From NCBI GenBank assembly GCA_963422645.2, contig CAXXVO010000008.1, positions 416,001 to 480,000 on the forward strand: DNA of 64,000 bases, written 5' to 3'. This DNA is from Alphaproteobacteria bacterium (GTDB lineage: Bacteria; Pseudomonadota; Alphaproteobacteria; UBA828). Positions 25,780 through 54,738 of the stretch are shown one piece after another (positions within the stretch are counted from its first letter, which is position 1; the number at the start of each line of letters is the position of its first letter). The notes below the pieces were generated by a model. It ran no database searches. It was not told the origin of the DNA and saw only the letters and a program-made list of their open reading frames with translations. The translations under genes and the position numbers were made by a program.

Positions 25780-27492
25780 TCATCCGATGAACCCGAGGCT
25801 CTCGAGCTTGACGAAGACCCGGTGGGCCGCGAGATCGGGTCGAATGACAGCGGTGTCGATTTCGATGTCGGGCTCTTCGGGTGGCTCGTAAGGGTCGTCG
25901 ATGCCGGTGAATCCTTCGATGAGTCCGGCCCTCGCCCTCGCATAGAGACCCTTTCGGTCACGCGCCTCGCAGGTCTCGAGCGGCGTCGAGACGTAGACCT
26001 CGACGAACCCCCCGACCGCTTCGATGGTCTCTCGCAGCTCGCGCCGGGTGGCCGCGTAGGGTGCGATGGGCGCGCAAATCGCGATACCGCCGTTTCGTGC
26101 GATCTCGGTCGCGACGAACCCGATGCGGCGCAGGTTGATCTCCCGGTGCTCGCGGGAGAAGCCGAGCTCGCTCGAGAGGTTCTTGCGCACGATGTCCCCG
26201 TCGAGGAGCGTGACCTGCCGCTCGCCGTTCTCGCGCAACATGGCGACGAGCGCATGCGCGAGCGTGGACTTGCCGGCGCCCGAAAGCCCGGTGAACAGGA
26301 CCACGAAGCCCTGCCGGTCGCGCGGCGGGTATGCGCGGCGCAGCTCGGCCGAGACCTCCGGGTCGGTGAACCAGTCCGGGATATCGAGCCCGAGCGCGAG
26401 GCGGCGGCGAAGCTCGGTCCCGCTCAGCCTGAGCACCCGGTCCTCGTTCGAGACCCGGTCGGCCTCAAGATACTTGGCCCGGTTCTCGACGTAGACCACC
26501 TCCTGAAGCGGCACCATGGCGATGTCGAGCTCGCTTTCGTGCTCGGCCATCAGCGCCTGCGCGTCGTAGGGGCCATAGAAGGGCCGGCCGTTGCGGCCCA
26601 CGTCCGGGGCCGCGTGGTCGGGTCCAACAACGAAGTGCGTGCACCCGTGGTTCTTGTTGATGATCGCGTGCCAGATCGCCTCGCGCGGGCCCGCCATGCG
26701 CAGAGCGAGATTGAGCAGGCTCAGCGTCGTGGTCTGGTCGGGAAACTGCGGGAGAACCCGCTCGTAGCAGCGGACCCGGGTGTAGTGGTCGACATCCCCC
26801 GGCGCGGTCTCGCCCACCACGGCATGGAGCAGAAGGTTCGCTTCGCAGGCGCGCGCGGCCTGCATCGAGAGCGCGACCTGGGCGCGGTGCAGCGGCTTGC
26901 GGGTCTGGAAGGCGACCACACGCCGCCACCCGAGCTTGCGGAAGCGCTCCCGCAGCTCAGCGGGAGAGTTTCGCAGCGCCCGGTGATCGTAGTGCAGGAT
27001 CGGCTCGAGCCCGAATACACGACCGCTCACGCAGACCGGATGCGTCCGATGAAGCAGGCGGGACACCCCGGGGTGAGCGTCATCGGCGGTGCCGTAGACG
27101 GCGCGCGCCTCCTCGTCCTTCTCGGGGCGCCATGTCTCGCCCACCTCCATGAGCGCGGCAAGCAGGCCTTCGCCGTCGCGGAGCGCGATCGTCTCCCCAA
27201 GCTCGAGACTCGCCGCGAAGTCCTCGCTCACGTCGAGCGTGACCGGGACCGGCCAGAGCACGCCCGAAGGGAGCCGCATGCCGCGAAGCACTCCCTCGTA
27301 TTCGAAGGGGCTCATGAATCCCTCGAGGGGAGAGAAGGCGCCGTTCAGCAACAACTCGACATCGCAGAGCTGGCGCGCGCTGAGGTCCCAGCTCTTCGCG
27401 TCCCTGGATCGGCGAAGCGCGTCGTCGCGCGCGGACCCGTCGAGGTATCCGCTCCTGAGCTTGCCGCCGTGCGGCGTCTTGAACGCGCCCAC
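25780..27492 (-). CDS. Sulfate adenylyltransferase/adenylyl-sulfate kinase fusion (sulfurylase motifs degenerate)
   Basis: PHGGKL, LLLNGAFSPLEGFM and MAGPREAIWHA in the N-terminal domain; kinase domain with GLSGAGKST, LLDGD and RDRKGLY. Confidence 0.9.
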   Translation of the reverse strand: MGAFKTPHGGKLRSGYLDGSARDDALRRSRDAKSWDLSARQLCDVELLLNGAFSPLEGFMSPFEYEGVLRGMRLPSGVLWPVPVTLDVSEDFAASLELGETIALRDGEGLLAALMEVGETWRPEKDEEARAVYGTADDAHPGVSRLLHRTHPVCVSGRVFGLEPILHYDHRALRNSPAELRERFRKLGWRRVVAFQTRKPLHRAQVALSMQAARACEANLLLHAVVGETAPGDVDHYTRVRCYERVLPQFPDQTTTLSLLNLALRMAGPREAIWHAIINKNHGCTHFVVGPDHAAPDVGRNGRPFYGPYDAQALMAEHESELDIAMVPLQEVVYVENRAKYLEADRVSNEDRVLRLSGTELRRRLALGLDIPDWFTDPEVSAELRRAYPPRDRQGFVVLFTGLSGAGKSTLAHALVAMLRENGERQVTLLDGDIVRKNLSSELGFSREHREINLRRIGFVATEIARNGGIAICAPIAPYAATRRELRETIEAVGGFVEVYVSTPLETCEARDRKGLYARARAGLIEGFTGIDDPYEPPEEPDIEIDTAVIRPDLAAHRVFVKLESLGFIG

Positions 27493-27654
27493 CCTCGTAT
27501 CCTGCCTCGGATCTTGCGGCACGTGCCGTCTGCGCCCCGGGACGCGGATTCTAGTGCGCACTGGTGTCTCGTAAAGTCGCGCCCGTCCTTCTTTATCCGT
27601 GCGGCCGCCTCGGACGCCAACCCGGCGGCGTTCGCCTTGACAGCGGGCGCTCGG

Positions 27655-30127
27655 CAATGGCATTCATTTGGCGCGAAGATTGTTCCGGGGTTTTTTGGTG
27701 GTGTCGTAACGAGTTGATTTCTTGTGTGGATTGTCGGTCTCGGCGTTTCCCGCACGAGGGGGATTGACCGGCGGCGTGTGCTTTGGCACACTGTGGCTGT
27801 CCCCCTGTCAGTGGAGCCGGCCCATGGACCCCCGCATCACCGCGCTGAAGTCGACGACCTTTTTCGGCAGACGTCTGACCCGCCGGCAGATTGCCGACAT
27901 CCAGGAGACGGTGGCGCTGTTTCCGGCGATCAGCCGCAACGAGCTCGGGCACACGATCTGCGAGCATTTGAACTGGCGCGCGCCGAGCGGGCGGAACCGT
28001 GTCGCGGTCTGCCTGCGGATGCTGGAGGAGTTGGAGCGGCTGGGCATCCTGACCCTGCCGGCGCGGGACGAGGCGCAGGTGCGGGGGCCGCAGGAGGCGA
28101 TGGCCCGGAGCGAGCGGACGGCGCCGGCCGCGGCGATCGCGGAGGACCTGGCCGCGCTGATGCCGCTGCGCCTGTCGATTGCGGCGGGCAAGGAGGAGGG
28201 CGGGCTGTGGAACGAGTTCGTCGCGCGCCACCACTATCTCGGGCTGCATCGTCTGGTCGGCGCGCATCTGCGCTATTTTCTCCTGGACCGCCACGGGCGG
28301 CCTCTGGGCTGCCTTCTGTTTGCCCGGGCGTCGCGCACGCTGCCCTGCCGCGACGAGTGGATCGGGTGGCCGGCGGAAGGCTTCCGCAAGCACCTCGATC
28401 TGGTCGTGGGTCACACGCGTTTCCTGATCTTTCCCTGGGTCCGGGTCGACAACCTGGCGTCGAAAGCGCTGTCGATGGCGCTGCGCCAGCTGCCCGGCGA
28501 CTGGGAGGCGCGCTTCGGAGCGCGCCCGGTTCTGGTGGAGACCTTCGTGGACCCCAGCCTCTTCGACGGCGCCTGCTACCGCGCGGCCAACTGGCGCTGT
28601 CTCGGCGAGACCGGGGGCGGCAAGGGCAAGACCCGCAAAAGCGTCTACGTCTACCCGCTGACGCCGGACTTCCGCTCGATCCTGCTCGAAGGCCCGCGGC
28701 CGGCGCGGCGCGGGAACAGGACACGGCCGGCAGCGCTGGCGCCGGACGATCCCTTCGTGGCGCTGTGGCAGGACCTGATCGGCGCACTGGCGGCGGTGGC
28801 CGCCGATCACGACCGGGTGTGGCAGAGCCGCCGGCGGGTCCTCGACACCCTTCTCGTCATGCTCTTCATCTTCCGGCTGGCGTTCTCGAACGGCCGCGCG
28901 GGCTACGCCACGACGCTGGCCGGGCTGTGGGAGCAGTGCCGGGTCCTGGGCGTCGCACTGCCGCAGCCGGCGCCGGTCTCGGCCTCGGCGATGTGCATGG
29001 CGCGGGCCAAGGTCGACGAGGCGGTGTTCAAGACGCTGCACGCCGAGATCCTCAAGCGCGCCGACGGCCCGGCCTGGAAGGGCCACCGCGTGTTCGCGGT
29101 CGACGGCTCCAAGCTCAACCTGCCGCGGCCGCTGCTCAAGGCCGGCTACCGCACGCCCTCCGAGGCGGCCCACTACCCGCAGGGCCTGCTGAGTTGCCTC
29201 TACCGGCTGCACGCGAACATCCCGGTGGACTTCGACCTGGTCGCGCACGGCGACGAAAGAAGGGCCGCCCTCGCCCACCTCAAGGCGCTCTCGGCCAACG
29301 ACATCGTGGTCTATGACCGCGGCTACTACTCTTGGGAGATGCTGCACGCCCATGTCGCCCGCGGCCTGCACCCCGTGTTCCGGATCAAGAAGAAGGCAGG
29401 CGCCGCCCTCGACGCCTTCATCGCCGACGGCCGCACGGACGCGCCGATCACCGTCGCTCCCGGAAAGGACACCCTGAGAAAGCTGCGCCGCAAGACGCCG
29501 CACGTCGACGCCACCCCGCTGCGCCTGCGACTGGTCCGCTACCGCACCGGCAGCACGGTCTTCATCCTCGCCACCACCCTCCTCGACCCCAAGGCCTGGA
29601 GCGTCGCGGAACTGGCCGAGCTCTATCACGCGCGCTGGGGAATCGAGGAACTCTACAAGACCTCGAAACAGGCCATGGCCGTCGAGGCCTTCCACAGCCA
29701 GACCGAGCGCGGCGTCCGCCAGGAGCTCTTCGCCCACTTCAACCTCATCGCCATGACCCGGCTCTTCACCAACCGCAGCAACGCAAGCCTCGACGCCGAG
29801 CGCCCTGCCGACGGCAAGCCGGCGATGAAAGCCAACTTCAGCAACGGCCTCGCCACCGTCGCGCGCAACCTCGAAGCGCTGCTGCTGCGCCATACGGCGA
29901 TGGTCGCCGAAACCCTCAGCCATGTCCTCTCCTGCATCAACCAGGCGCGTCAGCGCCCGCGCCCCGGCCGGTCCTGCGAACGCAGGTCGCGCAAACCCCG
30001 CGGCAAGTGGGCACGCGCAAAGCGGGCCGTCGCCTGAACACCTGAACGACAGAAACGCACGCAACCGACAGCGCAAGAACACGACTCCTTAAGTGAACAG
30101 TCGAAAACCGCTAAGTGAATGCCATTG
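27655..30127 (+). mobile_element. IS4-family element, 2473 bp
   Basis: TIRs CAATGGCATTCATTTGGCG and CAATGGCATTCACTTAGCG (reverse complement); 10-bp TSD GGGCGCTCGG at 27645-27654 and 30128-30137. Confidence 0.95.
27824..30037 (+). CDS. DUF4338 (DruA-like/Mom-like) domain fused to an IS4 DDE transposase
   Basis: N-half has SRNELGHTICEHLNW, RHHYLG and LVETFVDP...CYRAANW. C-half has AVDGS, VYDRGY and YHARWGIEELYK (YREK motif). Confidence 0.85.
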   Translation: MDPRITALKSTTFFGRRLTRRQIADIQETVALFPAISRNELGHTICEHLNWRAPSGRNRVAVCLRMLEELERLGILTLPARDEAQVRGPQEAMARSERTAPAAAIAEDLAALMPLRLSIAAGKEEGGLWNEFVARHHYLGLHRLVGAHLRYFLLDRHGRPLGCLLFARASRTLPCRDEWIGWPAEGFRKHLDLVVGHTRFLIFPWVRVDNLASKALSMALRQLPGDWEARFGARPVLVETFVDPSLFDGACYRAANWRCLGETGGGKGKTRKSVYVYPLTPDFRSILLEGPRPARRGNRTRPAALAPDDPFVALWQDLIGALAAVAADHDRVWQSRRRVLDTLLVMLFIFRLAFSNGRAGYATTLAGLWEQCRVLGVALPQPAPVSASAMCMARAKVDEAVFKTLHAEILKRADGPAWKGHRVFAVDGSKLNLPRPLLKAGYRTPSEAAHYPQGLLSCLYRLHANIPVDFDLVAHGDERRAALAHLKALSANDIVVYDRGYYSWEMLHAHVARGLHPVFRIKKKAGAALDAFIADGRTDAPITVAPGKDTLRKLRRKTPHVDATPLRLRLVRYRTGSTVFILATTLLDPKAWSVAELAELYHARWGIEELYKTSKQAMAVEAFHSQTERGVRQELFAHFNLIAMTRLFTNRSNASLDAERPADGKPAMKANFSNGLATVARNLEALLLRHTAMVAETLSHVLSCINQARQRPRPGRSCERRSRKPRGKWARAKRAVA

Positions 30128-30167
30128 GGGCGCTCGGGGGTGCGAGCGCCGCGACGGCAGGAGAGAT

Positions 30168-31072
30168 ATGCCGTCCCGATTGACTGACAGGGAGTCGCGA
30201 CGGAGGCAGGGGACACCAAGGGCTGTCGGACTCGGCGGAGTGCCGATCGGCAGTCAGACCCTCGCTGCATGCGAAAGCAAGGGTTTCGACCTCCCCCCCC
30301 GGGTCCGGATCGAAAAGGCCAAGGCGGAGGAAAGCCTGGCCTCCTTCGCACGCGAGAACCCCGGAGCCGACATTCCCGAGCCCGAATGGGTTCGCCGCGC
30401 GCCGCACATAGCGAAGGCGGAAGCCGCGCTCATGAAGGCGCAGGCCAAAATGAAGCAGGCGCAACTCTGGCTCGACCGAACGGAGATCTCCCTTCCTTAC
30501 GACGTCCGGGTAACGGCGTCGGATATCGATGTCGGCCAGTTCGTCGGTCCCGCCGATCTCGTCGGTCGAGCCTCGACCTTGGGCTCCGTGTATCGGACCG
30601 ACGCGCTCCAGGTCAGAGTGCCCATCGAAGAGGACAGCCTCGCCTATCTCGCGCCGGCCATCGGTCGTTCCGCCACAATTCGAACCGCGTCGGGAAGCTA
30701 CAACGCTGTAGTGGAGCGCACGTCTGCGATCGTCGGTCCCAAGTCTCGTCTCGCGGCAGTCTTCCTGAAATTCGCGGAGGATCACCCGGCGGAGACGCTG
30801 CCGCTCCCCGGCTCGTTCGTGGAGGTTTCGATCGCGGGGCCCGTGCACGACAACGTGTTCCTCCTTCGGAATCGGCGATGCAGGACCGGGGCAGCGTCTG
30901 GGTCGTCGAAGGCGGTGCGCTGAAGGCCGTGATGCCGCGCACACTGGGACACGCCGACGGCGGAGTGGTGGTGGAGGCGTTCGACGCGGGCGAGGGCATC
31001 GTCGTCGGCTCCTTGCCGGGAGCGCGAGAGGGATTGGCCGTCGAGGTCAGCGCCGCGCAGGCGTCGGAATAG
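30168..31072 (+). pseudogene. RND efflux membrane-fusion (adaptor) protein, N-terminally truncated and frameshifted near 30868
   Basis: AKAEAALMKAQA..LDRTEISLPYD and PGSFVEVSIAG; continues as (LP)ESAMQD.. in another frame. The normal N-terminal anchor and first biotinyl half-domain are not seen. Confidence 0.7.
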
Positions 31073-31084
31073 CGGAGCCGGGCC

Positions 31085-33856
31085 ATGAGCATGACCGACG
31101 CCGGCAGCACCAACGCCGGGCCCGCGGCGCAGCCGAGCCCGACCGGACTGAAGTCGGGGCTGATCGCCTACTTCGCCGGCAATCGCGTTGCCGCCAACCT
31201 GCTGATGGTTCTTCTGATCGTCGGTGGTGTGCTTTCGGGGCTCCAACTCATCGTCCAGTACTATCCGGATATCGAAGCGCGGCGGGCCGCCGTTTCGGTG
31301 CTCTATCCGGGCGCCTCGCCCCAGGAGGTCGAGGAGGACATCAACCGCCGCATCGAGGAGGCCGTCGTCGGGTTGCCGGGCGTCGAGCGCGTGGTATCGA
31401 CCGCGAGCCAGGGCATCGGCAAGGTCACGGCAGAGATGGCGACCTTCGCGGATGTCGACGCCGTCTTCAACGATATTCAGAGTGCGATCGACAGCATCGA
31501 GAACTTCCCGCCGGTCAGGGCGGAACAGCCGGACGTCGAACTTCTCAAGGTCTCCCACGAAGTCATGACGCTGGCGGTCGTGTCCTCCAGTCTGTCCGAG
31601 GACGGACTGCGCCTCGCGGCGGAAGGCCTGCGCGACAGGGTATTGGCGCTGCCCTCCGTCTCCCAGGTAGGGCTGAAAGGCACCCGGGACCGCGAGATCG
31701 CGATAGAGCTCAGCGAAGAGGAGCTGCGCCGCCACGGCCTTTCCATCGGCGAAGTGTCCAGAAAGGTGAGGCGAGCGTCCCTCAACCTCACCATGGGCGA
31801 GATACGGACGGACACCGGCAGCGTGATCCTGCAAACCGTCGCCAAGAGGAGCGTCGGCCAGGATTTCGAGGACATTCCGCTCATCACTCAGACCGACGGC
31901 ACGATCGTGAAGCTCGGCGAGGTCGCCACGATTCGCGACGGCTTTGTCGACGAGGACGTGGTCACCGAGGTTAACGGCCATCCGGCGGTGCTCGTTCGCG
32001 TCGATGCGACCGATCAGCAGTCCGTCGTCGAGATGGCCGAGGACATCAGGAATCTGCTCGCGGTCTACAGCCCGCCCGAAGGCGCGAGCGTCACTATCTG
32101 GAACGACAATGCCAGTCCCATATTCGACCGGCTGCTGGAGATCGTGAAGAACGGGGCGATCGGTACGATCCTGGTGTTCATCAGCCTCGTTCTCGTCTTC
32201 GAGCTCCGCATCGCGTTGTGGATGACCGTCGGCATCCCCCTGTCATTCGTGGGCTCGCTGCTCTTCTTCGATGCTGCGGACCTCACCCTCAATCTCGGCA
32301 CGATCTTCGGCTTCTTCCTCCTGGTGGGCATCGTCGTCGACGATTCCGTCGTGGTGGGAGAAAGCATCGCGTCGGAACGAGAAAAGGGGAAAGGTGCGCT
32401 CGATGCGGCGATATCGGGCGCGCGGGCCATGGTGGGCCCCCTCACCATCGGCGCCATTACGACGATTCTGGCCTTCCTGCCCTTCCTCTTCGTCACATCG
32501 CCCGCGTTCCAGATCGTGAACGTGTTCCCCTACGTCGCGATCTTCGTCCTGCTCGTCTCCCTCGTCGCGGCGTTCTTCATTCTCCCGGCGCATCTCTCGC
32601 ATGGGAGGCGCTGGAGCCTCTCGCCGCTGAGCGACGTGCAGAGCCAGGTCGGTGGATGGCTGGACGAGGTGCGCGACAGGGTCGTGGCGCCTGCGGCCTC
32701 ATGGGCCGTGCGCAACGTCGGGCTGTCGATCGTCGGTGGAATCCTGGTTCTGGTCGCCGCCCTCCTGCTCATCGGCTCCGATTCAGTACGGATCGTCCTC
32801 TTCGACCAGAACCTGAGCAGCAGCGACAGCGTGCAGGCGGACATCTATCTGCCGGTCGGCGCGCCCTTCGAGGAGACGCTGGCCGCAGCCGATCGCTTCG
32901 TCGAGGCAGCGCATACCATCGACGACCGGCTCGAGGAGACCTCCGTCGACGCAGTGAGCATGATCGTCGGCAACATCGAGACGGGCCGGAAGATCAAAGA
33001 GAAGCTGAACAGCAGCCATCTCGCCTCCGTGCGCCTGCATCTCAGCGATCAGGCCGATCGCAGCGCGAGCCCGGCCCAAGTCGAGCGCGCGTGGCGCGAG
33101 GCCGTCGGGCCATTGGTGAACCTGGACAAGGTCGAATTCCGCTCCAGGCGGGTCGATGTGAGGCCAAGCGTTTCCTATTCGCTCAAGCACGACGACATGG
33201 AGACGTTGAGAAGCGCCGCCGAGTTGAGGGCGGGGATGGCGACCGTGCCGGGGATCTACGGCATCCATGACGACCTGGCACTGGGGAAACGCCACTTCGA
33301 GATCGAGCTGACCCCGGCAGGGAAGGCCGCAGGGCTGACTCCGGCACTGATCGGAAAGCAGCTGCGCTCGAGCTTCCACGGCGCGGATGTCCAGCGCATC
33401 CAGCGGGGCCGCGAAGAAATCAACGTGGTGGTCAGGTACCCGGCCGAGCGGCGGAGCAGTCTGAGCGAGCTGGCCAGCGAACGTATCCATCGGCCGGGCG
33501 GCGGCGAAATCCCGCTCTCGCTGGTCGCGTCGATCACCGAGAAGCGCGAGCCGGCGACGCTGACGCGGATCGACGGCAAGCGGGCTGCGCGCGTCAACGC
33601 GCGGGCGGACACCGCGTTGATCACGCCCATTCAGGCGCGGCGGGAGGTTCGCGACCAAGTCGTTTCCAGCCTTCTGGCGAAGTATCCCGGTCTCGCCATC
33701 GAGGTCGAAGCCGGCGCTCGGGACGAGGGCGACATGCTCGAGACGCTGGCGCTTCCCCGCGAGCGTATCGACGACGTTGGTCGCGCCCATCAGCTCTTCC
33801 GCGTAGGCCCGGCGGGGGTCCTCGGCCGTGCCTGCGACGGTGGCATATTCGCCTGA
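31085..33856 (+). pseudogene. RND efflux permease (AcrB family), C-terminally truncated
   Basis: NRVAANLLM, PGASPQEVEE and GIVVDDSVVVGE motifs. Similarity stops near 33752, where the second TM bundle should begin. Confidence 0.8.
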
Positions 33857-48736: not shown

Positions 48737-49787
48737 ACCGCTTATGCACATGGCTCCGGTTCGATCAACATGCTGTAGGTAAGGGGTTTTGCATTGGTGG
48801 CGATGCGGAAGAGCGAGCGGAAAGCAGCGTGGCGGGTTTTGCGGCGGTTGAAGCGAAAGGCGAACTCATCGAGATAGGCCTGCAGATGCTTGCGGCGCAG
48901 CCCGTGGTAGACGCCTCGCGCCCATCCTTTGAGGTTGGAGAAGACTTGGTGGATCCACGGCAGGACGAGGTGAGCGGCGGTCTTCCCGACGACATGGACA
49001 TTGTGGCGATCGGCGGGGACCGCAGCGTAGCCGGACCAGCCGTCGGTTTTCGCGATGGCGTCGGGATCGGCGGCGGTTTCGACGAAGTGTCCGAGGTCGG
49101 CGGCGCCGTAGGAGGAGATTTCGGCCAGCCGCAGGCGGCCCGGGATGGTTCCATCCCCCAGTTCGATGGCGCCGACGATGAGCATCTTGCCGTCGTGGCT
49201 GCGTCCTTGCCCTCCGGTGGGAGGATCGTCTTTGGTCCGGAATGGAAGGCTGGCCTCGTCGATTTCCACCAGGCCCGACAACGGGTTGCGCTCGGGGTCG
49301 ACCATGCTGGCGCGCAGCTTGTGGGCGAGCAGCCAAGCGCTGCGGTAAGAGCCGATACCGAGCTGTTTCTGGAGCTGCAGGGCAGAGATGCCGTTGGAGT
49401 GGGTCGCCATCAGGTAGGCGGCCCAGAACCAGACGGTGAGCGGCAGCTTGCTGGCGTGCAGGATCGTCCCGGCCGTCACCGAGGTCTGCCGGCGGCAGCC
49501 GGCGCACTCGAAGGTGTGTGCTTTTCTGCGCAGCGCCCATCCCTTTTCATGGCCGCACGCGGGACAGACGAAGCCGTCCGGCCAGCGCATTTCGATCAGC
49601 CAGGCGGCGCAGGCGTCATCGTCCGGGAACATGTGCTGGAAGGCGAGGAGGCTGTCGGCGACCTGTTTCATGTGGTGGCTCCGTCGGCAGGAACGTATAG
49701 GCAACATTCTACCCGTTCTCCCGCCCTAACCTCAACCTCAACATCTGGTGGCAAACTCTCGCGACCGGAGCCATGTGCATAAGCGGT
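48737..49787 (-). mobile_element. IS1595-family element, 1051 bp
   Basis: 24-bp perfect TIR ACCGCTTATGCACATGGCTCCGGT; 8-bp TSD TTAGAAGA at 48729-48736 and 49788-49795. Confidence 0.95.
48742..49707 (-). CDS. IS1595 transposase
   Basis: RWPDGFVCPAC zinc ribbon, VEIDE, TDGWSGY and YLDEFAFRFNRR motifs; start uncertain. Confidence 0.93.
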   Translation of the reverse strand: MLPIRSCRRSHHMKQVADSLLAFQHMFPDDDACAAWLIEMRWPDGFVCPACGHEKGWALRRKAHTFECAGCRRQTSVTAGTILHASKLPLTVWFWAAYLMATHSNGISALQLQKQLGIGSYRSAWLLAHKLRASMVDPERNPLSGLVEIDEASLPFRTKDDPPTGGQGRSHDGKMLIVGAIELGDGTIPGRLRLAEISSYGAADLGHFVETAADPDAIAKTDGWSGYAAVPADRHNVHVVGKTAAHLVLPWIHQVFSNLKGWARGVYHGLRRKHLQAYLDEFAFRFNRRKTRHAAFRSLFRIATNAKPLTYSMLIEPEPCA

Positions 49788-50035
49788 TTAGAAGATACAA
49801 AGTGTTGGGAATAAACATGGTAGGTCTCTCCTCATTCCGCATCAGAAGGTAGATCGTAACTGCCCAGGTACCCCCTCTCTCTTATGGAACAAGCCAGTTC
49901 CTTTTGCGTCAACGCCCCCACGCCGCGGGAGTGCCTACTCTCTTGAGCGCGAGAGGATGATGAACGCCGCGTCGCGAACAAGATGAGAGGACAGCGATAC
50001 TCAGGATGAGCCGGAGAAGTTCAGGAGCGCAGTAT

Positions 50036-52547
50036 CAGACTTCCTGACCTCGTGATGCTGGCTGTTCTGGGCAGCGTGCCGGGAACTCCTTGAATTCTGA
50101 TACATTTCGGTTGTTTCAGGCGGTTTTTCGCTGGGTGTCGCGCCCGAGGTCTGATAGTATAATTTGATACCAATTGCACGGTCTCAACCATGCCCAGTAC
50201 CCTCCCAATGTGCCCTCCAGAGGCGGTCTCGATCGGCAACAGCTGCTTCGCCGTCCTGATCTCGGACGACACCTTCACCTACTTTTCCAACCTCATTCCC
50301 TTTGACAGCCACGCCGCCGATGACCGCACGGCCATGCTCTTGCGGATCGGCCGCCTCGCGGCGATCAGCGCGGTCTCGCCGCAGGAACTGGCTGACGCTT
50401 TCGCTGTCTCGCGCGCGACGGTGCAGCGCGCACGACGGCGCTACCTGGCCGAGGGCGAAGCGGGGTTCATGAAGCCCCGGCGCGGTCGCGGGCCGTCGGT
50501 GTTCACTCCGGAGTTGGCGGAGAAGGCGACGGCGTTGCTGGCATCGGGCCTGAGCGGCTCTGCGGCGGCCCGGGTTCTCGGCGTGTCAGCGCCATCGGTC
50601 AACAAGTGGCGCCGTCAGGGACTGATCGGCAACACGGAGGCGGATGGGGAGCCCGGACGCTCAGCGCTGGCTGCGCCGCCTGACGCGGGTGCGGCTCCTG
50701 AAGGCCGTGTCGATGAAGAGAGTACCGGTGCCCCGGGGCCGGAGACGGCGCCGGGGCTGGAAGCGCAGCCGCAAACGGATCGCAGCGCGCGCGATCGGCG
50801 GGACCGGCAGGCGCCGATGGGGCGTGCGACTTGCGATGTTCCGGCTCGGGTTCTGGCCAGTTGTGGACAGGCGGGGCCGGTCGAACCGCAGTTCGCCGCC
50901 GCCGCCCGCGGTGTCCGCTTCGGCGGCGTGCTCGCCGCCCTGCCGGCCCTGCTGAAGGAAGGTCTTCTCTCCGAGACCGGTCTCCTGCCATTGCTGCCGA
51001 AGGGCTATTACGGCTTGCCTACGATCCTGCTCTTCCTGGCCTTCATGACCTTGGCGCGGGTGCGCAACCCCGAGAGCCTGCGCTACCAGGCGCCGGGCGA
51101 ATGGGGCGCCATTCTCGGCCTCGATCGCTGCCCCGAGGTCAAGACGCTGCGCCGCAAGATCGCTCTCATCGCCGACGACGAGGCCGGCGTGCGGGCGTGG
51201 CAGCTCGCCCTTGCCAGGCGCTGGCAAGGCCGACGAGCCGGAGCTCTGGGCGACGCTGGCCATCGACGGGCACGTCAAGGTCTACTCCGGCCGCAAGGGG
51301 CGCTTGCCCAAGCACTTCGTCTCGCGCGAGAAGCTGTGCCTGCCGGCGAGCGCCAGCTACTGGATCAACGCTCTGGGCGGCAAGCCGCTGCTCTGTCTGC
51401 ACAAGCCGCTGGACCCGAAGATGGTCGCGGCCATCGAAGCCGACGTGGTGCCGGCGCTGCAGGAGCTTGGGATCGTTGGCGCCGGGGCGCCGGACCTGAC
51501 CGCCGAGCATCCCGGCCAGCCGGCGCTCACCCTGGTCTTCGACCGCGAGGGCTGGAGCCCGGATCTGTTCCGCCGGCTGGCGAGGCGCGGCGTCGCCTGC
51601 CTGACCTGGCACAAGAACTTCAGGGGCGAGGACTGGCCGGCCGAGGACTTCGGCGCGATGACCGTTCCCATTCACGGACCGGCGGCGGACGGCAGCGCCA
51701 CCATGCGGCTGGCTGAGAAGCCGGTGACGTTGCCGAACGGCTTCAGGGTGCGCCAGATCCGCCGCCTGCTCGACAACGGCCGTCAGGTGCCGCTGATCAC
51801 CACCGATCCGCACAAGCCGATGGCTGAGGTTGCGGGCGCCATGTTCTCGCGCTGGTCGCAGGAGAACTTCTTCAAGTACATGCGTGACGAGTTCAATCTC
51901 GACGCCCTGCCGACCCACGAGCTCGAGCCTCTCGATCCCGCCGCCATGGTCGTCAACCCGCTGCGGCGGGCCTATGACAAGGCAATCCATCGCCTCGACC
52001 GCCAGCTTGGCCGCCTGCGCAACCGCATCGCCGACACGGCCCGGAAGAAGCAGCCGACGGCGGAACTCAGGAGGGAAGTCAGGGACCTCCAGGATGTCCG
52101 CGACATCGTCAGGGCCAGCCGCAGGGAGACGCCCAAGCACTGCCGGGCCGGCGACCTCGACGAAGCCGAGCAGCTCGATGCCTTGCCCGCGCGCGAGCGC
52201 CTCCTCCTCGACGTCATCCGGATGATCGCCTACCGCGCCGAAACCCGCATGATGATTCCCGTCATGCAGGCGCAGGGCCACAAGCCCCATCCCCGGAAAC
52301 TGCTTCAAGCGCTGCTCACCGCCGATGCCGACATCCTGCCGGATCCTGGCAATGGCCTCCTGCGGGTCCACATTCTTGGCCTCGCAAACGACGCCTGCGA
52401 CCGTTGGATCGATGCGGTTCTGAGCGACCTGAACGCCACCGAAACGGTCTTCCCCGGCACCCGTCTGCGCATAGTCTACGACATCGACGGGGCCTCGGAA
52501 TCCGCGCGGCTCGTGTCACCTAAAATCAGCAGAGGTCAGGAAGTCTG
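50036..52547 (+). mobile_element. Unclassified IS-like element copy 2, 2512 bp, nested in the IS66-MTase element
   Basis: Same TIRs as 38594-41106; 5-bp TSD AGTAT at 50031-50035 and 52548-52552. Confidence 0.9.
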
Positions 52548-52548
52548 A
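50190..52548 (+). CDS. Large HTH + DDE putative transposase, frameshifted near 51228
   Basis: Near-identical to 38748-41107. Confidence 0.8.
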
Positions 52549-54076
52549 GTATAGGGATCAGCTGCATCGGTTCCGGGTGCGCCAGGATTTGCAGGATGTT
52601 CCAGCCTTGCTTTCGAGCGGTGACGATGACGCTGCGCATTCCGGCGAAGTTGCAGGCGCCTTGCAGGGAGCGGAAGCCGCCTGAGATCTTCTCATGCACT
52701 TTGTTCATACGGATGTCACGCTCCGCCTCGTTATTCGTGAACGGCGTGCGCAGGTCGGTGAGGAAGCGCAGGCAGCCCTCCTTATGCTTTTGAAGGCGGC
52801 GCGCGAGGTTGTGGCCGATGCGGCGTTTCTTTCGCCCTCGCTTTGCGATCTGGAGCGGCGGTTGGGCCTCATGGAAGGCGATGGCTTCTTCGAGGATACG
52901 GTCCCATGCCCTTGAGATGCGGGCCACCAGGGAGGCGGGGACTTGACGGTCTTTCTCACGGGCGAAGCGGGCGGCCCTGCGCGCGCGCTGAAGCAGGCGG
53001 TGCATGCTCGCCGCCCATTCCTCCTTCTCGATGTCGATCAGGGCCTGGAGTTCGCGCAGGTGATGTGCGTTGCAGGCGCCGTGGCGGACGCCCTTGATGG
53101 TGAAGTAGGGGGCGAAGTCGTCGTGGACGAGGATGCCTTTCAGGTTCTTTTCGACATCGCCGCGTCCCTCGCCGATGCGCAGGACGGTGAGCAACGGGGT
53201 GCACAGCACATGGAGCCAGCGGGTACGGGCGGCGATACGCAGGCCGGTCTCGTCGAGGTGCTTGACCGGCGCCTGCGTGCGGATCAGATCGGCGACATGG
53301 TCGAGGAAGCCCTCGAAGCGCTGCGCTGTGCGCCGGCCCATGGCGGCGATCGTGGCAGTGGAGATGGACACCGCGAAGATGTCGCTCATGAGTTCGGCCA
53401 GACGCTTCTCGGGCACGAACTGGGCGTACAGCAGGTAACTCACCCAAGCGGTGATGCGAGGGCCGTACTGGACCGGGGCGGTGACGCCCGGCGGGAAGGC
53501 GGCTCGTGTCAGCGTGCCGCATGCGCCGCAGAGGCAGCGATGGGCGCGGTGTTCGGTGACCTCGAGAGGCTGCGGCTCGGGTACGTCGAAGACCTGCCGA
53601 CAGGCGGGCGCGCCTTGCCGGTCGGCGTCCGAGAGCTCGACGCCACAGCCGGAACAGGTGGAGGGGTGGTGATCGACGACACGGTCCGGGCTGTCGCTCC
53701 GCGCGAGGGTGGTTCCCTTGTGGCCGGGCTGGCCGCCACTGGGCCCGCCGGACTTTCCGCGCTGGCTTTGGGTGCGCCTCTGGGCTCCGCTTTTCTTCTT
53801 GAGCCCGTCGCTGGCGGGGGGCTTGCTGCTTGTGGTGCTGTTGAGGGCCGCGCTGCGCTCGAGTTCGGCGATGCGCTCGCGCAGGGCCGCGTTCTCCTGC
53901 TCGAGTGCGGCATTTTCCCGGGCGAGCGCGGTGGCTGATCGCAGCAGCCCCTGCCCCCATTCCCGGACGGCAACGACGACAGTGGTTGCGAGGGATGATG
54001 GCTCGAGAAGCTCCTTCAGGCAGCAGAAGGCCTCGTTACGGGCGGCGAGGTCTTCGTGCCAGTGCGACACCGTCAC
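52526..54076 (-). CDS. tnpC: IS66 transposase TnpC (last codons replaced by the nested IS)
   Basis: NSTTSSKPPASD, HLDETG, CNAHHLREL and TNNEAERDIR motifs. GTG start overlaps the MTase stop (GTGA). The original end ILRS* lies at 50021-50035. Confidence 0.9.
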   Translation of the reverse strand: MTVSHWHEDLAARNEAFCCLKELLEPSSLATTVVVAVREWGQGLLRSATALARENAALEQENAALRERIAELERSAALNSTTSSKPPASDGLKKKSGAQRRTQSQRGKSGGPSGGQPGHKGTTLARSDSPDRVVDHHPSTCSGCGVELSDADRQGAPACRQVFDVPEPQPLEVTEHRAHRCLCGACGTLTRAAFPPGVTAPVQYGPRITAWVSYLLYAQFVPEKRLAELMSDIFAVSISTATIAAMGRRTAQRFEGFLDHVADLIRTQAPVKHLDETGLRIAARTRWLHVLCTPLLTVLRIGEGRGDVEKNLKGILVHDDFAPYFTIKGVRHGACNAHHLRELQALIDIEKEEWAASMHRLLQRARRAARFAREKDRQVPASLVARISRAWDRILEEAIAFHEAQPPLQIAKRGRKKRRIGHNLARRLQKHKEGCLRFLTDLRTPFTNNEAERDIRMNKVHEKISGGFRSLQGACNFAGMRSVIVTARKQGWNILQILAHPEPMQLIPILRLPDLC

Positions 54077-54738
54077 GTGTCTTCGGCCTCGACGGCCATC
54101 ATGGCGGCGAGCACGGCGAGGCGTTCGCCCGGCGGCAAGGCCTGGTAGCGCCGGCCCCAGTTGGCTGCCTTGCGCTTGATGCGCTGGCGGTCGGTGAAGT
54201 TCCGGCCTGCGTGGCTGGCCCAATGCATCCGGTCGGGGGCGTAGTTGAACCAGACGACCTCGGTTCGCACCAGACCCTGGGTCGTGACCTGCAGCGCCAG
54301 CCGGCGCCATCCCGCCAGCACCTCGTCATAGAGCGCCGACGGATGGCCCGAGATCATGACCTGGCAGGGCAGAGCCTTGAGCAGCGCGAGAAGCGCGACG
54401 TGGCCGGCCTCCTCGTACTCGAAGCGGTAGCGCTGCGCCGAGCGGCGGGTCGCGTGCAGATAGGGCGGATCGCTGTAAACCAGCTCCGGGCCCAGGAACG
54501 GGAACGAGGCCAGGAAGTCATGGGCACAGCCGTGAACCAGATCGACCGGGTAGTCGCAGACGAAGGCCTCGAGCGCCTGCGCATCGCGGTCGATGCCGAT
54601 CGAACGCACGGCCGGCGGCTTGCGCTTCATCAGCGCCCCGCCCCCAAGGTGGCTTTCGATGTAGACGGAGTGCGGCGGCATCAGCGCAATCAGCGCTTGG
54701 CACAGACCTGCTGTCGCCTTCGAGCCGAAATACCCCAT
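54073..54738 (-). CDS. DNA adenine methyltransferase (D12/Dam-like, alpha motif order)
   Basis: YFGSK (motif X), IESHLGGG (motif I-like), IGID, YSDPPY (motif IV), MISG and RTEVVWFNY. Confidence 0.85.
   Translation of the reverse strand: MGYFGSKATAGLCQALIALMPPHSVYIESHLGGGALMKRKPPAVRSIGIDRDAQALEAFVCDYPVDLVHGCAHDFLASFPFLGPELVYSDPPYLHATRRSAQRYRFEYEEAGHVALLALLKALPCQVMISGHPSALYDEVLAGWRRLALQVTTQGLVRTEVVWFNYAPDRMHWASHAGRNFTDRQRIKRKAANWGRRYQALPPGERLAVLAAMMAVEAEDT

Follow-up and report, generated by a model that had tools for sequence, protein, structure and literature searches.

A recently active IS4-family insertion sequence whose transposase is fused to a DruA/DUF4338 GNAT domain resembling phage Mu Mom

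The window analysed here, a stretch of 64,000 nucleotides from the genome of an Alphaproteobacteria bacterium, contains a 2473-bp IS4-family insertion sequence on its plus strand, from position 27655 to position 30127. The element is bounded by 19-nt terminal inverted repeats (TIRs; 27655-27673 and 30109-30127) in which 17 of 19 positions pair (89% complementary), and the 10-mer GGGCGCTCGG stands in identical copies at 27645-27654 and 30128-30137, forming a target-site duplication (TSD). One ORF lies between the TIRs, running from an ATG at 27824 to a stop at 30037 and encoding 737 aa. A TTG start at 27722, which would give a protein of 771 aa, is disfavoured; the 20 aligned homologues start with MDxRI. 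An earlier reading made from the sequence alone (hereafter the sequence-only reading) had described an intact element with TIRs, a 10-bp TSD and a single 737-aa ORF, and this was borne out by end, flank and ORF analysis. The features of the locus are the following.

27645..27654, no strand: left copy of the TSD, 10 bp, GGGCGCTCGG; such a 10-bp duplication accompanies 9 of 10 full-length copies
27655..30127, plus strand: whole IS4-family insertion sequence, 2473 bp, defined by its ends, its copies in the genome and contigs joining the flanks without the element
27655..27673, plus strand: left TIR, 19 nt, 17 of 19 positions paired with the right TIR
27824..30037, plus strand: ORF of 737 aa, an accessory module fused to a transposase (ORF, Pfam, NCBIfam and homologue starts)
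27824..28063, plus strand: residues 1-80, small helical N-terminal domain (models; all-pairs identity 0.63)
28157..28690, plus strand: residues 112-289, DruA/DUF4338 domain with a Mom-like GNAT fold, including H137, Y138, R199, S213, D243 and Y252 (Pfam, model and structure matches)
28535..28541, plus strand: insertion site in the E-T codons of ETFVD, empty in this copy and occupied in others
28736..29068, plus strand: residues 305-415, helical region before the DDE core (PF13006 Nterm_IS4 matches 6 of 20 homologues weakly)
29075..29740, plus strand: residues 418-639, DDE catalytic core (Pfam, NCBIfam and invariant residues)
30109..30127, plus strand: right TIR, pairing with the left TIR
30128..30137, no strand: right copy of the TSD, the same 10-mer as on the left

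The same genome holds ten full-length copies, 99.6-100% identical, together with many near-identical partial copies. All ten keep an open frame of 749-775 codons, and nine are flanked by a perfect 10-bp TSD, each a different one. Their targets are GC-rich with a symmetric preference, CCC and GGG often flanking the element. In other copies, the E-T codons of the ETFVD motif (28535-28541) are occupied by a 2818-bp large-serine-recombinase element. The empty site was found in contigs from public runs, which join position 27644 to position 30128, skip 2483 bases and leave one copy of the 10-mer. For flank-joining contigs we required 31 letters on the short side. The contig from run X7, a relative with a flank identity of ~92%, has 55 letters there; the contig from run X2, which carries the same organism label, has 30 and is a weak row because it falls below this rule. 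Empty-site rows from runs X7 and X9 come from relatives; run X6, in which the flanks are not covered, was left out. The IS4-family element has been recently active.

The transposase half of the protein is readily recognized. Residues 418-639 match Pfam DDE_Tnp_1 (PF01609; E 8.1e-21, 75.1 bits versus a cut-off of 23), and the NCBIfam model transpos_IS4_1 (NF033592) matches from residue 367 with 158 bits versus a cut-off of 115. The signature of IS4 transposases is a D, D, E triad with Y-(2)-R-(3)-E-(6)-K; here, D427, D498 and E608, together with Y601-R604-E608-K615, are invariant across 20 homologues. Residues 305-415 correspond to the N-terminal region that IS4 transposases normally have, which PF13006 (Nterm_IS4) matches weakly in 6/20 homologues. 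The full-length model is poor over the DDE half, with a mean pLDDT of 64 (20 sequences).

Ahead of this transposase, residues 88-272 match the Pfam family DruA (PF14236; E 1.3e-31, 110.3 bits versus a cut-off of 27), a score that upholds the DUF4338/DruA identity proposed by the sequence-only reading. The motifs it had pointed out are present as well, ARHHYLG at residues 134-140 and ETFVDP-SLFD-GACYRAANW at residues 239-257. DUF4338 is called a GNAT domain in one published paper (PMC10853773). In the literature on Druantia and DUF4338 we found no description of a biochemical role for DruA.

The fusion belongs to a large family. Among 1643 homologues, both Pfam domains occur in every one of the best 120, which answers the question of whether the fusion recurs, and when the DDE half alone served as query, 110 of the 120 top matches had both. 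The N-terminal domain has an all-pairs identity of 0.63, the GNAT domain one of 0.62 and the DDE core one of 0.60; by this measure, the extra module is as conserved as the DDE core. It consists of the N-terminal helical domain and the GNAT domain and is also encoded as a stand-alone protein of ~300 aa, with identities of 34-64% across fused and stand-alone forms. The fused family is visible in databases, and we found no printed description of it: the literature searched on DUF4338, DruA, Mom and IS4-family elements yielded no paper tying the DUF4338/DruA domain to a transposase.

Modelling of the N-terminal module gave a pLDDT of 92.5 and a GNAT fold for residues 112-289 (beta-alpha-beta-beta-beta-alpha-beta-alpha-beta topology). 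We compared this model with 48,161 PDB representatives; 214 of them reached a Z score of at least 8, and the 50 best, which were listed, are all GNAT-fold or GNAT-containing proteins. The top match is phage Mu Mom (8bv8_B; Z 14.8, rmsd 3.1 A, 158 residues aligned, 18% identity), followed by a structure at Z 12.9, so that the structure comparison suggested in the sequence-only reading returned a GNAT fold with Mom as its nearest solved relative. Phage Mom also appears at rank 4 in the BFVD viral library (E 1e-7). Because a GNAT, Mom-like fold is present and the fusion is found in all 120 listed homologues, the proposal stands as regards both fold and fusion. Hypermodification of DNA adenines by Mom with the use of a charged tRNA was demonstrated in 2026 (PMC13219725).

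A GNAT fold by itself is uninformative on substrate, and according to those who characterised Mom, even its own substrates were not predictable from structure (PMC13219725). The domain could be an active GNAT that acts on something other than DNA, be it a protein (the transposase or a nucleoid protein), an aminoacyl-tRNA or a small substrate, and that tunes the transposase to the state of the cell. We consider this unlikely, if far from negligible. It would agree with the remaining 49 of the 50 listed neighbours, which are protein, small-molecule or RNA acyltransferases at Z 11-13, about 2 below Mom; with Foldseek, which placed Mom second (E 5.9e-5 versus 4.1e-5 for the first) and did not separate it from ordinary GNATs; and with two departures from Mom considered below, a missing DNA-binding insertion and a leucine in place of R151. 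It agrees less well with the constant joining of the module to a DNA-handling enzyme, with the status of Mom as the only recurring secondary family in sequence searches, and with the nature of the shared residues, which correspond to the active-site set of Mom and not to the classical acetyl-CoA loop. In GNATs, the acetyl-CoA pyrophosphate loop has the form Q/R-x-x-G-x-G/A after strand 4. By eye, this motif is absent from the module, where residues 204-216 read PWVRVDNLASKAL and contain no glycine; the corresponding stretch of Mu Mom, DDMPRNSESRAIS, is likewise without an obvious acetyl-CoA glycine loop.

At the level of sequence, Pfam Mom (PF25680) weakly matches 11 of 20 fused homologues (best E 2.7e-5) and 20 of 39 stand-alone homologues (best E 0.0021). 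No other secondary Pfam family recurs among the homologues. The Mom match of the module itself, at 11.6-14.2 bits, lies under the gathering cut-off of 27.1. When 39 DruA-like sequences were aligned by hhalign with 25 Mom sequences gathered in a homologous-protein search, the match covered 150 columns at E 0.0092 with a probability of only 4.4%; Mu Mom alone matched the two DruA-like alignments weakly (E 0.11 and 0.045). A locus search seeded with Mu Mom returned close relatives only, 85-100% identical. Sequence searches of the PDB with the N-terminal 319 aa or with the 39-sequence profile did not find Mom, although 8bv8 was included, and this genome has no canonical Mom gene detectable with PF25680 at E <= 1.

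The activity of Mom requires H58, Y59, S124, D149 and Y159 (PMC13219725). The hhalign pairings, which come from a profile alignment and not a superposition, are H137/H58, Y138/Y59, W205/W113, S213/S124, D243/D149 and Y252/Y159. Across 59 fused and stand-alone sequences, H137, R199 and S213 never vary, Y252 is kept in 58, and D243 is kept in 44 and replaced by Glu in 11 others. R151 of Mom, which cannot be changed to alanine without loss of detectable activity (PMC13219725), aligns to Leu246 in this copy; most fused homologues (17/20) have K or R at this position. R111 and the HTH-like insertion (~175-209) are likewise essential in Mom; R111 falls in an alignment gap beside P204/W205, and the invariant R199 precedes this site by 4-6 residues in the same strand. 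Insertion 175-209 is aligned to a gap, and the structural alignment with 8bv8_B covers 158 of the 195 chain residues that it spans. The Mom-like GNAT assignment of the sequence-only reading is thus upheld in its fold, in its nearest solved relative (Mu Mom) and in most active-site residues, whereas the module scores below the Pfam Mom cut-off, has no HTH-like insertion and carries Leu at the R151 position.

These departures also bear on the idea that the domain is no longer catalytic and has become a structural part of the transposase, serving in DNA binding, multimerisation or target choice. Such a role would suit the leucine at a position where alanine inactivates Mom, as well as the fact that no counterpart of R111 can be assigned. 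It would also suit the GC-rich target preference with its frequent CCC/GGG flanks, since target recognition has to reside somewhere in the protein. A scaffold would not, however, be expected to preserve H137, R199 and S213 in 59/59 sequences and Y252 in 58/59, a pattern typical of an active site, nor to occur as a separate protein beside IS66 transposases. We regard loss of catalysis as distinctly improbable.

The small domain formed by residues 1-80 looks HTH-like by eye and is conserved in both fused and stand-alone forms. Searching a structure atlas with residues 1-85 gave no informative match (best score 0.84).

The stand-alone form of the module also occurs with transposases. A 3532-bp IS66-family element in the same genome, with 134-nt TIRs and an 8-bp TSD, encodes inside its inverted repeats an IS66 transposase of 812 aa and, downstream of it, a DruA-like protein of 293 aa. 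A DruA-like gene lies directly downstream at 7 of the 9 loci that match this transposase, and in other genomes it abuts an IS66-type transposase in 3 of 28 short loci. The sequence-only reading had held that two insertion sequence families here carry candidate modifying enzymes, the second being an IS66 element with a methyltransferase (MTase). No MTase was found beside the IS66-family transposase at 52529-54310 (26 ORFs scanned, 49-58.5 kb), and the MTase family PF01555 has no match within the window; the idea of two families survives in altered form, in that IS66-family elements of this genome carry a stand-alone DruA-like gene. The IS66-MTase element may lie elsewhere.

Carriage by insertion sequences is relevant to whether the module is cargo for defence or counter-defence, an 'armoured IS' that would act against phage like DruA in Druantia or against restriction like Mom for Mu. 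The name of the Pfam family derives from DruA of Druantia, Mom is known for restriction evasion (PMC13219725), and PF14236 is patchy, as defence genes are, occurring in 24 of 401 genomes sampled across the phylum; patchiness is, however, equally expected of an insertion sequence. No PADLOC model matches the element even at E <= 1, the DruA model included, and its single ORF is accompanied by no DruB-E. An enzyme tethered to the ends of its own element would, moreover, protect little DNA. Since the module is fused to a transposase in 120/120 listed homologues and is also found inside an IS66 element, a role in transposition is favoured over defence, and we judge defence cargo very unlikely.

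Together, the results give us high confidence in the following description: a recently active IS4 element whose transposase combines a helical domain (residues 1-80), a DruA/DUF4338 GNAT domain nearest to Mom (residues 112-289) and a complete IS4 DDE transposase (residues ~305-737), with the module also occurring on its own and in an IS66 element. The fuller interpretation, in which this three-part protein includes a DNA-modifying transferase serving the transposon, is more tentative, and we place it a little short of an even chance. Under this interpretation, the module would be a working transferase in the service of the transposon and not of the host. The group that it transfers would most likely be acyl or aminoacyl and be placed on a DNA base, as by Mom. 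Like Mom, the module lacks the classical acetyl-CoA loop, and on this ground we propose a charged tRNA as a possible donor. The DNA-binding role of the HTH-like insertion, which Mom has and the module lacks, could fall to the N-terminal domain. With enzyme and transposase in one polypeptide, any mark would be placed wherever the transposase is located: at the ends of the element, at the donor site or at the target. The insertion sequences IS10 and IS50, both of the IS4 family, depend on and read host Dam methylation. The most plausible use of a mark would be analogous to this, in the control of transposition or the marking of the element's own DNA; alternatively, the mark could protect DNA from restriction during transfer.

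In most descriptions, insertion sequences carry no more than they need to move. Here, an enzyme-like module is apparently under purifying selection equal to that on the catalytic core in more than 1000 transposase clusters (domains were checked in the best 120 of 1643 homologues), and it travels with a second, unrelated transposase family. Were its activity Mom-like, DNA hypermodification by a transposon would be without precedent; it would resemble the Dam control of IS10 and IS50, with the difference that the element brings its own writer, and it would provide a testable biochemical lead for DruA in type I Druantia. A broader picture, which we think improbable on present evidence, would be of a large clade of DDE transposons equipped with a Mom-type enzyme that may depend on aminoacyl-tRNA, the enzyme being fused to the transposase in IS4 elements and encoded by a neighbouring gene in IS66 elements. 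This enzyme would write a bulky base mark at or around the element, an epigenetic signal for timing, target immunity or hiding from nucleases, and the same chemistry would explain DruA of type I Druantia. Should the module act on protein or be inactive, the element would still define a well-delimited, active and abundant IS4 subgroup that is undescribed in the insertion sequence literature searched.

Several known systems provide points of comparison. Mu Mom (PF25680; PDB 8BV8) is a GNAT that attaches glycine, taken from Gly-tRNA(Gly), to adenine N6 in dsDNA. It has in common with the module the GNAT fold and the motifs HY, S, (S/T)F(A/V)D and Y-x-A-(S/A)-N-(F/W); unlike Mom, the module has no HTH-like insertion and has an extra N-terminal part of ~110 residues, and it is part of a transposase whereas Mom is the product of a phage late gene. 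DruA of Druantia type I belongs to the same Pfam family (PF14236, formerly DUF4338), but the element lacks DruB-E and its domain is part of a transposase. In this genome, an IS66-family element carries the same module as a separate, unfused gene, 35% identical to the fused module, beside a transposase of another family. The IS4-family insertion sequences IS4, IS10, IS50 and IS231 resemble the element in their DDE_Tnp_1 core, Y-2-R-3-E-6-K signature, short TIRs, 10-bp TSD, single ORF and symmetric GC-rich target preference; they differ from it in that the transposase described here is ~300 residues longer, with an enzyme-like module, in an element of 2.47 kb. Finally, whereas IS10 and IS50 make use of the Dam methylase of their host, the element described here may carry a base-modifying domain of its own.

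The element under study, an IS4-family insertion sequence (IS) of 2,473 bp, is flanked on both sides of 27655-30127 by the same 10 bases (GGGCGCTCGG). It contains a single long frame that runs from ATG 27824 to a stop at 30037 and encodes 737 aa. A mechanical ORF list offers an alternative start at TTG 27722 (771 aa); the ATG is preferred because 20 aligned homologues start at its MDxRI.

Features of the IS4 element (window coordinates, or residues of the 737-aa protein)
27655-27673: left inverted repeat, 19 nt, 17/19 positions complementary to the right repeat
30109-30127: right inverted repeat, 19 nt, partner of the left repeat
Residues 88-272: DruA domain (PF14236; Pfam, E 1.3e-31)
Residues 134-140: ARHHYLG motif, read from the sequence
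Residues 239-257: ETFVDP-SLFD-GACYRAANW motif, read from the sequence
Residues 418-639: DDE_Tnp_1 domain (Pfam, E 8.1e-21)

The protein scores 158 bits against the NCBIfam IS4 equivalog (cut-off, 115), and its DDE triad and Y-2-R-3-E-6-K motif, the latter being the signature of IS4 transposases, are invariant in the 20 homologues (D427, D498, Y601, R604, E608 and K615). The sequence-only reading had described an intact IS4 element with inverted repeats, a 10-bp duplication and a 737-aa ORF, and had placed RHHYLG and ETFVDP-x4-GACYRAANW motifs upstream of an IS4 DDE core; the sequence bears out the first description, and both motifs were found, with Pfam and NCBIfam in agreement. The neighbours of the IS are a long minus-strand ORF (25780-27663) that by eye resembles a fused sulfate adenylyltransferase/APS kinase, and a plus-strand ORF pair (30093-33856) that resembles, also by eye, an RND efflux adaptor and pump; the adaptor-like ORF beside the IS has 276 aa and an N-terminus that looks short.

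This element is a live insertion sequence. The source genome (5.9 Mb, 23 contigs) holds 10 full-length copies with 99.6-100% identity, besides numerous partial or interrupted copies (36 pieces in blastn). All 10 full copies have kept an open frame of 749-775 codons, and nine are surrounded by a perfect 10-bp duplication, no two alike. The empty site was also recovered: contigs from public sequencing runs link 27644 straight to 30128 with one copy of the 10-mer. The empty-site contig in run X7, from a relative whose flanks are ~8% different, has 55 letters on its shorter side; the join in run X2, labelled as the same organism, is weak (30 letters on the shorter side, one below the 31-letter threshold); and in run X9, from another relative, the flanks are linked with a few other letters between them. 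The IS is also present in run X6, under a different organism label (B), where contigs measuring 878, 492 and 1132 nt show 0-1 differences from it. Targets are GC-rich, often with CCC before and GGG after, and in the 12 copies with a 10-bp target-site duplication, that duplication mostly shows G at positions 1, 2 and 5 and C at 6, a symmetric preference reminiscent of the IS231 target.

Several further observations concern the copies. Comparison of runs X6 and X7 with window 27300-30500 also showed, in organism C, an IS copy that is ~98.7% identical. In two interrupted copies in the source genome (G000:C5:333654-338952 and G000:C6:279436-284734) the target duplications are exchanged: one copy has on its left the 10-mer that the other has on its right. 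Two copies of a serine-recombinase element, at C6:342645 and C8:597539, are flanked on the left by the IS4 element and on the right by an IS66-type DruA-like gene. The swapped duplications and hybrid flanks are signs of recombination between copies that has rearranged the genome.

The recombinase element measures 2,818 bp; its 733-aa product is a large serine recombinase with Resolvase, Recombinase and Zn_ribbon_recom domains.

Sites of the serine-recombinase element
G000:C10:178473-181290 (locus L091): an occupied site
Window 28535-28541: insertion point, empty in the window copy

At least five copies of the IS4 element carry the recombinase element at one position, within the E-T codons of ETFV(D/E), and diverged IS66-borne DruA-like genes carry it there too; its left flank reads ...GTGGAGA or ...ATCGAGA and its right flank GTGGAGACC in every case. 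Run X2 likewise shows serine-recombinase junctions at 28535/28541. This element resembles a site-specific parasite that targets the motif conserved in the DruA-like domain.

The N-terminal part of the transposase had been proposed to adopt a Mom-like GNAT fold, and structure prediction agrees. A model of residues 1-300, built with 39 stand-alone plus fused homologues (mean pLDDT 92.5, pTM 0.74), comprises a small helical domain (1-75) followed by GNAT topology (116-289). Among 48,161 PDB representatives the best match, aligned in full, was the crystal structure of phage Mu Mom (8bv8_B against model residues 112-289: Z 14.8, rmsd 3.1 Å, 158 residues aligned, 18% identity); ordinary GNAT acyltransferases rank below it at Z 12.9 and less, and a lower-quality full-length model gave the same ranking. 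Foldseek returned GNATs only, with Mom second and not set apart from the rest (E 5.9e-5 versus 4.1e-5 for the first). In the viral library BFVD, phage Mom ranks fourth (E 1e-7), and the matches also include several 'endonuclease-like' proteins of 500-700 aa. A transferase that acts on a protein or tRNA substrate is an alternative we regard as rather unlikely.

Profile searches give weak matches to Mom as well. Pfam Mom was the sole recurring secondary family, matching 11/20 fusions (best E 2.7e-5) and 20/39 stand-alone proteins (best 0.0021); any other family matched a few members at most. The window protein itself scores 11.6-14.2 bits, below the Mom cut-off of 27.1, and a profile-profile comparison of 39 DruA-like with 25 Mom homologues aligned 150 columns (E 0.0092), though the hhalign probability is as low as 4.4%. 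DUF4338 is termed a GNAT domain in a passing mention in PMC10853773.

This module was joined to an IS4 transposase long ago, and the fusion is widespread. Of 5.8 billion proteins searched (8000 candidates scored), 1643 matched, and the best 120 of these, with lengths of 680-886 aa and 51-64% identity to the query (its own cluster aside), all carry PF01609 and PF14236 together, so the fusion is present in homologous elements. Sources that name them use 'IS4 family transposase' or 'Druantia protein DruA/Transposase DDE domain'. With the DDE half as query, 110 of the 120 best matches have both domains; the other 10, interspersed with fusions at 54-64% identity, have PF01609 only (427-546 aa) and may be truncated calls or secondary losses. 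Among 20 fused homologues, all-pairs identity reaches 0.63 in residues 1-80, 0.62 in 115-290 and 0.60 in the DDE core, compared with 0.39 and 0.25 in the two linkers; constraint on the module thus equals that on the catalytic core. A search with residues 1-300 alone retrieved 7023 representative clusters with E ≤ 0.001, of which 565 reach E ≤ 1e-30; the clusters include many stand-alone proteins of ~290-315 aa spanning the entire module, and also fusions of ~725-796 aa.

Stand-alone DruA-like genes keep company with a second transposase family. The source genome has further DruA-like genes with 35-46% identity to the fused one, three of them intact (contigs C10, C13 and C16), and no diverged IS4 DDE partners.

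IS66-family element with a DruA-like gene
L058 1386-4917 (G000:C13:253005-256536): 3532 bp, with relatives at loci L059 and L060

This element has 134-nt inverted repeats (99% complementary) at its ends and an 8-bp duplication (CAGAATTC) around it. It encodes an 812-aa IS66-family transposase (PF03050, E 3.9e-58), directly followed by a 293-aa DruA-like gene (PF14236, E 2e-38) that extends by its final codons into the right repeat. The transposase has three identical copies and several diverged ones in the genome, and a DruA-like gene lies directly downstream at 7/9 matching loci. PF14236 occurs at E ≤ 1e-10 in 24/401 sampled genomes of the phylum, many hits being on 2-3 kb contigs; a DruA-like gene adjoins a following IS66-type transposase at 3/28 loci in other genomes, most loci being too short to judge.

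Transposase genes in the window, 49000-54325
49000-49725, minus: IS1595-type fragment
50190-51713 and 51049-52545, plus: Transposase_29 gene in two overlapping frames, possibly split by a frameshift
52529-54310, minus: IS66-family transposase (PF03050, E 6.5e-41)

A companion IS66-methyltransferase element had been invoked in an 'armoured IS' idea. No methyltransferase appeared among the 26 ORFs scanned at 49-58.5 kb around this IS66 transposase, and PF01555 had no match inside the window. The IS4 element matches no PADLOC model and has no second gene; the 'armoured' label is therefore without support at present, and defence or anti-restriction cargo is a very unlikely role. A role in transposon biology accounts more readily than host defence for the retention of the module by two unrelated DDE families, fused in one and neighbouring in the other.

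Starting from this mobile element, the fold, conservation and Mom kinship of its module, and the association with two transposase families, we infer, with a little less than even confidence, that the module works as a Mom-type transferase and modifies a base in DNA. The transposase tether and the module's own N-terminal domain would bring it to the element ends, donor site or target, where the mark would control or label transposition; as in Mom, a charged tRNA may serve as the donor. That adenine marks can govern transposition is clear from IS10 and IS50, also IS4-family elements, which are under the control of host Dam methylation. The sequence family is not new, being visible in databases under Pfam and NCBI labels. 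Word searches of a paper collection found no paper on a transposase with this domain, nor one linking DruA to Mom or giving DruA a biochemical role. What appears new is an IS4-family element with an added Mom-like, enzyme-like module, a variant within a known family.

The glycine-rich acetyl-CoA loop, a motif of GNATs, was seen by eye in neither the module nor Mom. Profile alignment pairs H137 with Mom H58, Y138 with Y59, W205 with W113, S213 with S124, D243 with D149 and Y252 with Y159, and the motif YRAANW with YQASNF. PMC13219725 (2026) shows that Mom moves glycine from Gly-tRNA(Gly) onto N6 of adenine in dsDNA, with an active site lined by H58, Y59, R111, S124, D149, R151 and Y159, among which R111, S124, D149 and R151 are essential or almost essential, and with an indispensable HTH-like insertion (residues 175-209); database numbering of Mom is 10 below that used there. 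H137, R199 and S213 are conserved in 59/59 aligned sequences, Y252 in 58 and D243 in 44, with Glu in 11 more. The match is incomplete: Mom R151 corresponds to Leu246 in this element, whereas 17/20 fused homologues have K or R there, and R111 falls in an alignment gap, for which the invariant R199, on the same strand, is an unproven candidate counterpart. A structural domain without catalysis seems improbable to us. The module lacks the HTH-like insertion of Mom but has a conserved N-terminal domain that Mom does not, and this domain may take over DNA binding in place of the insertion.
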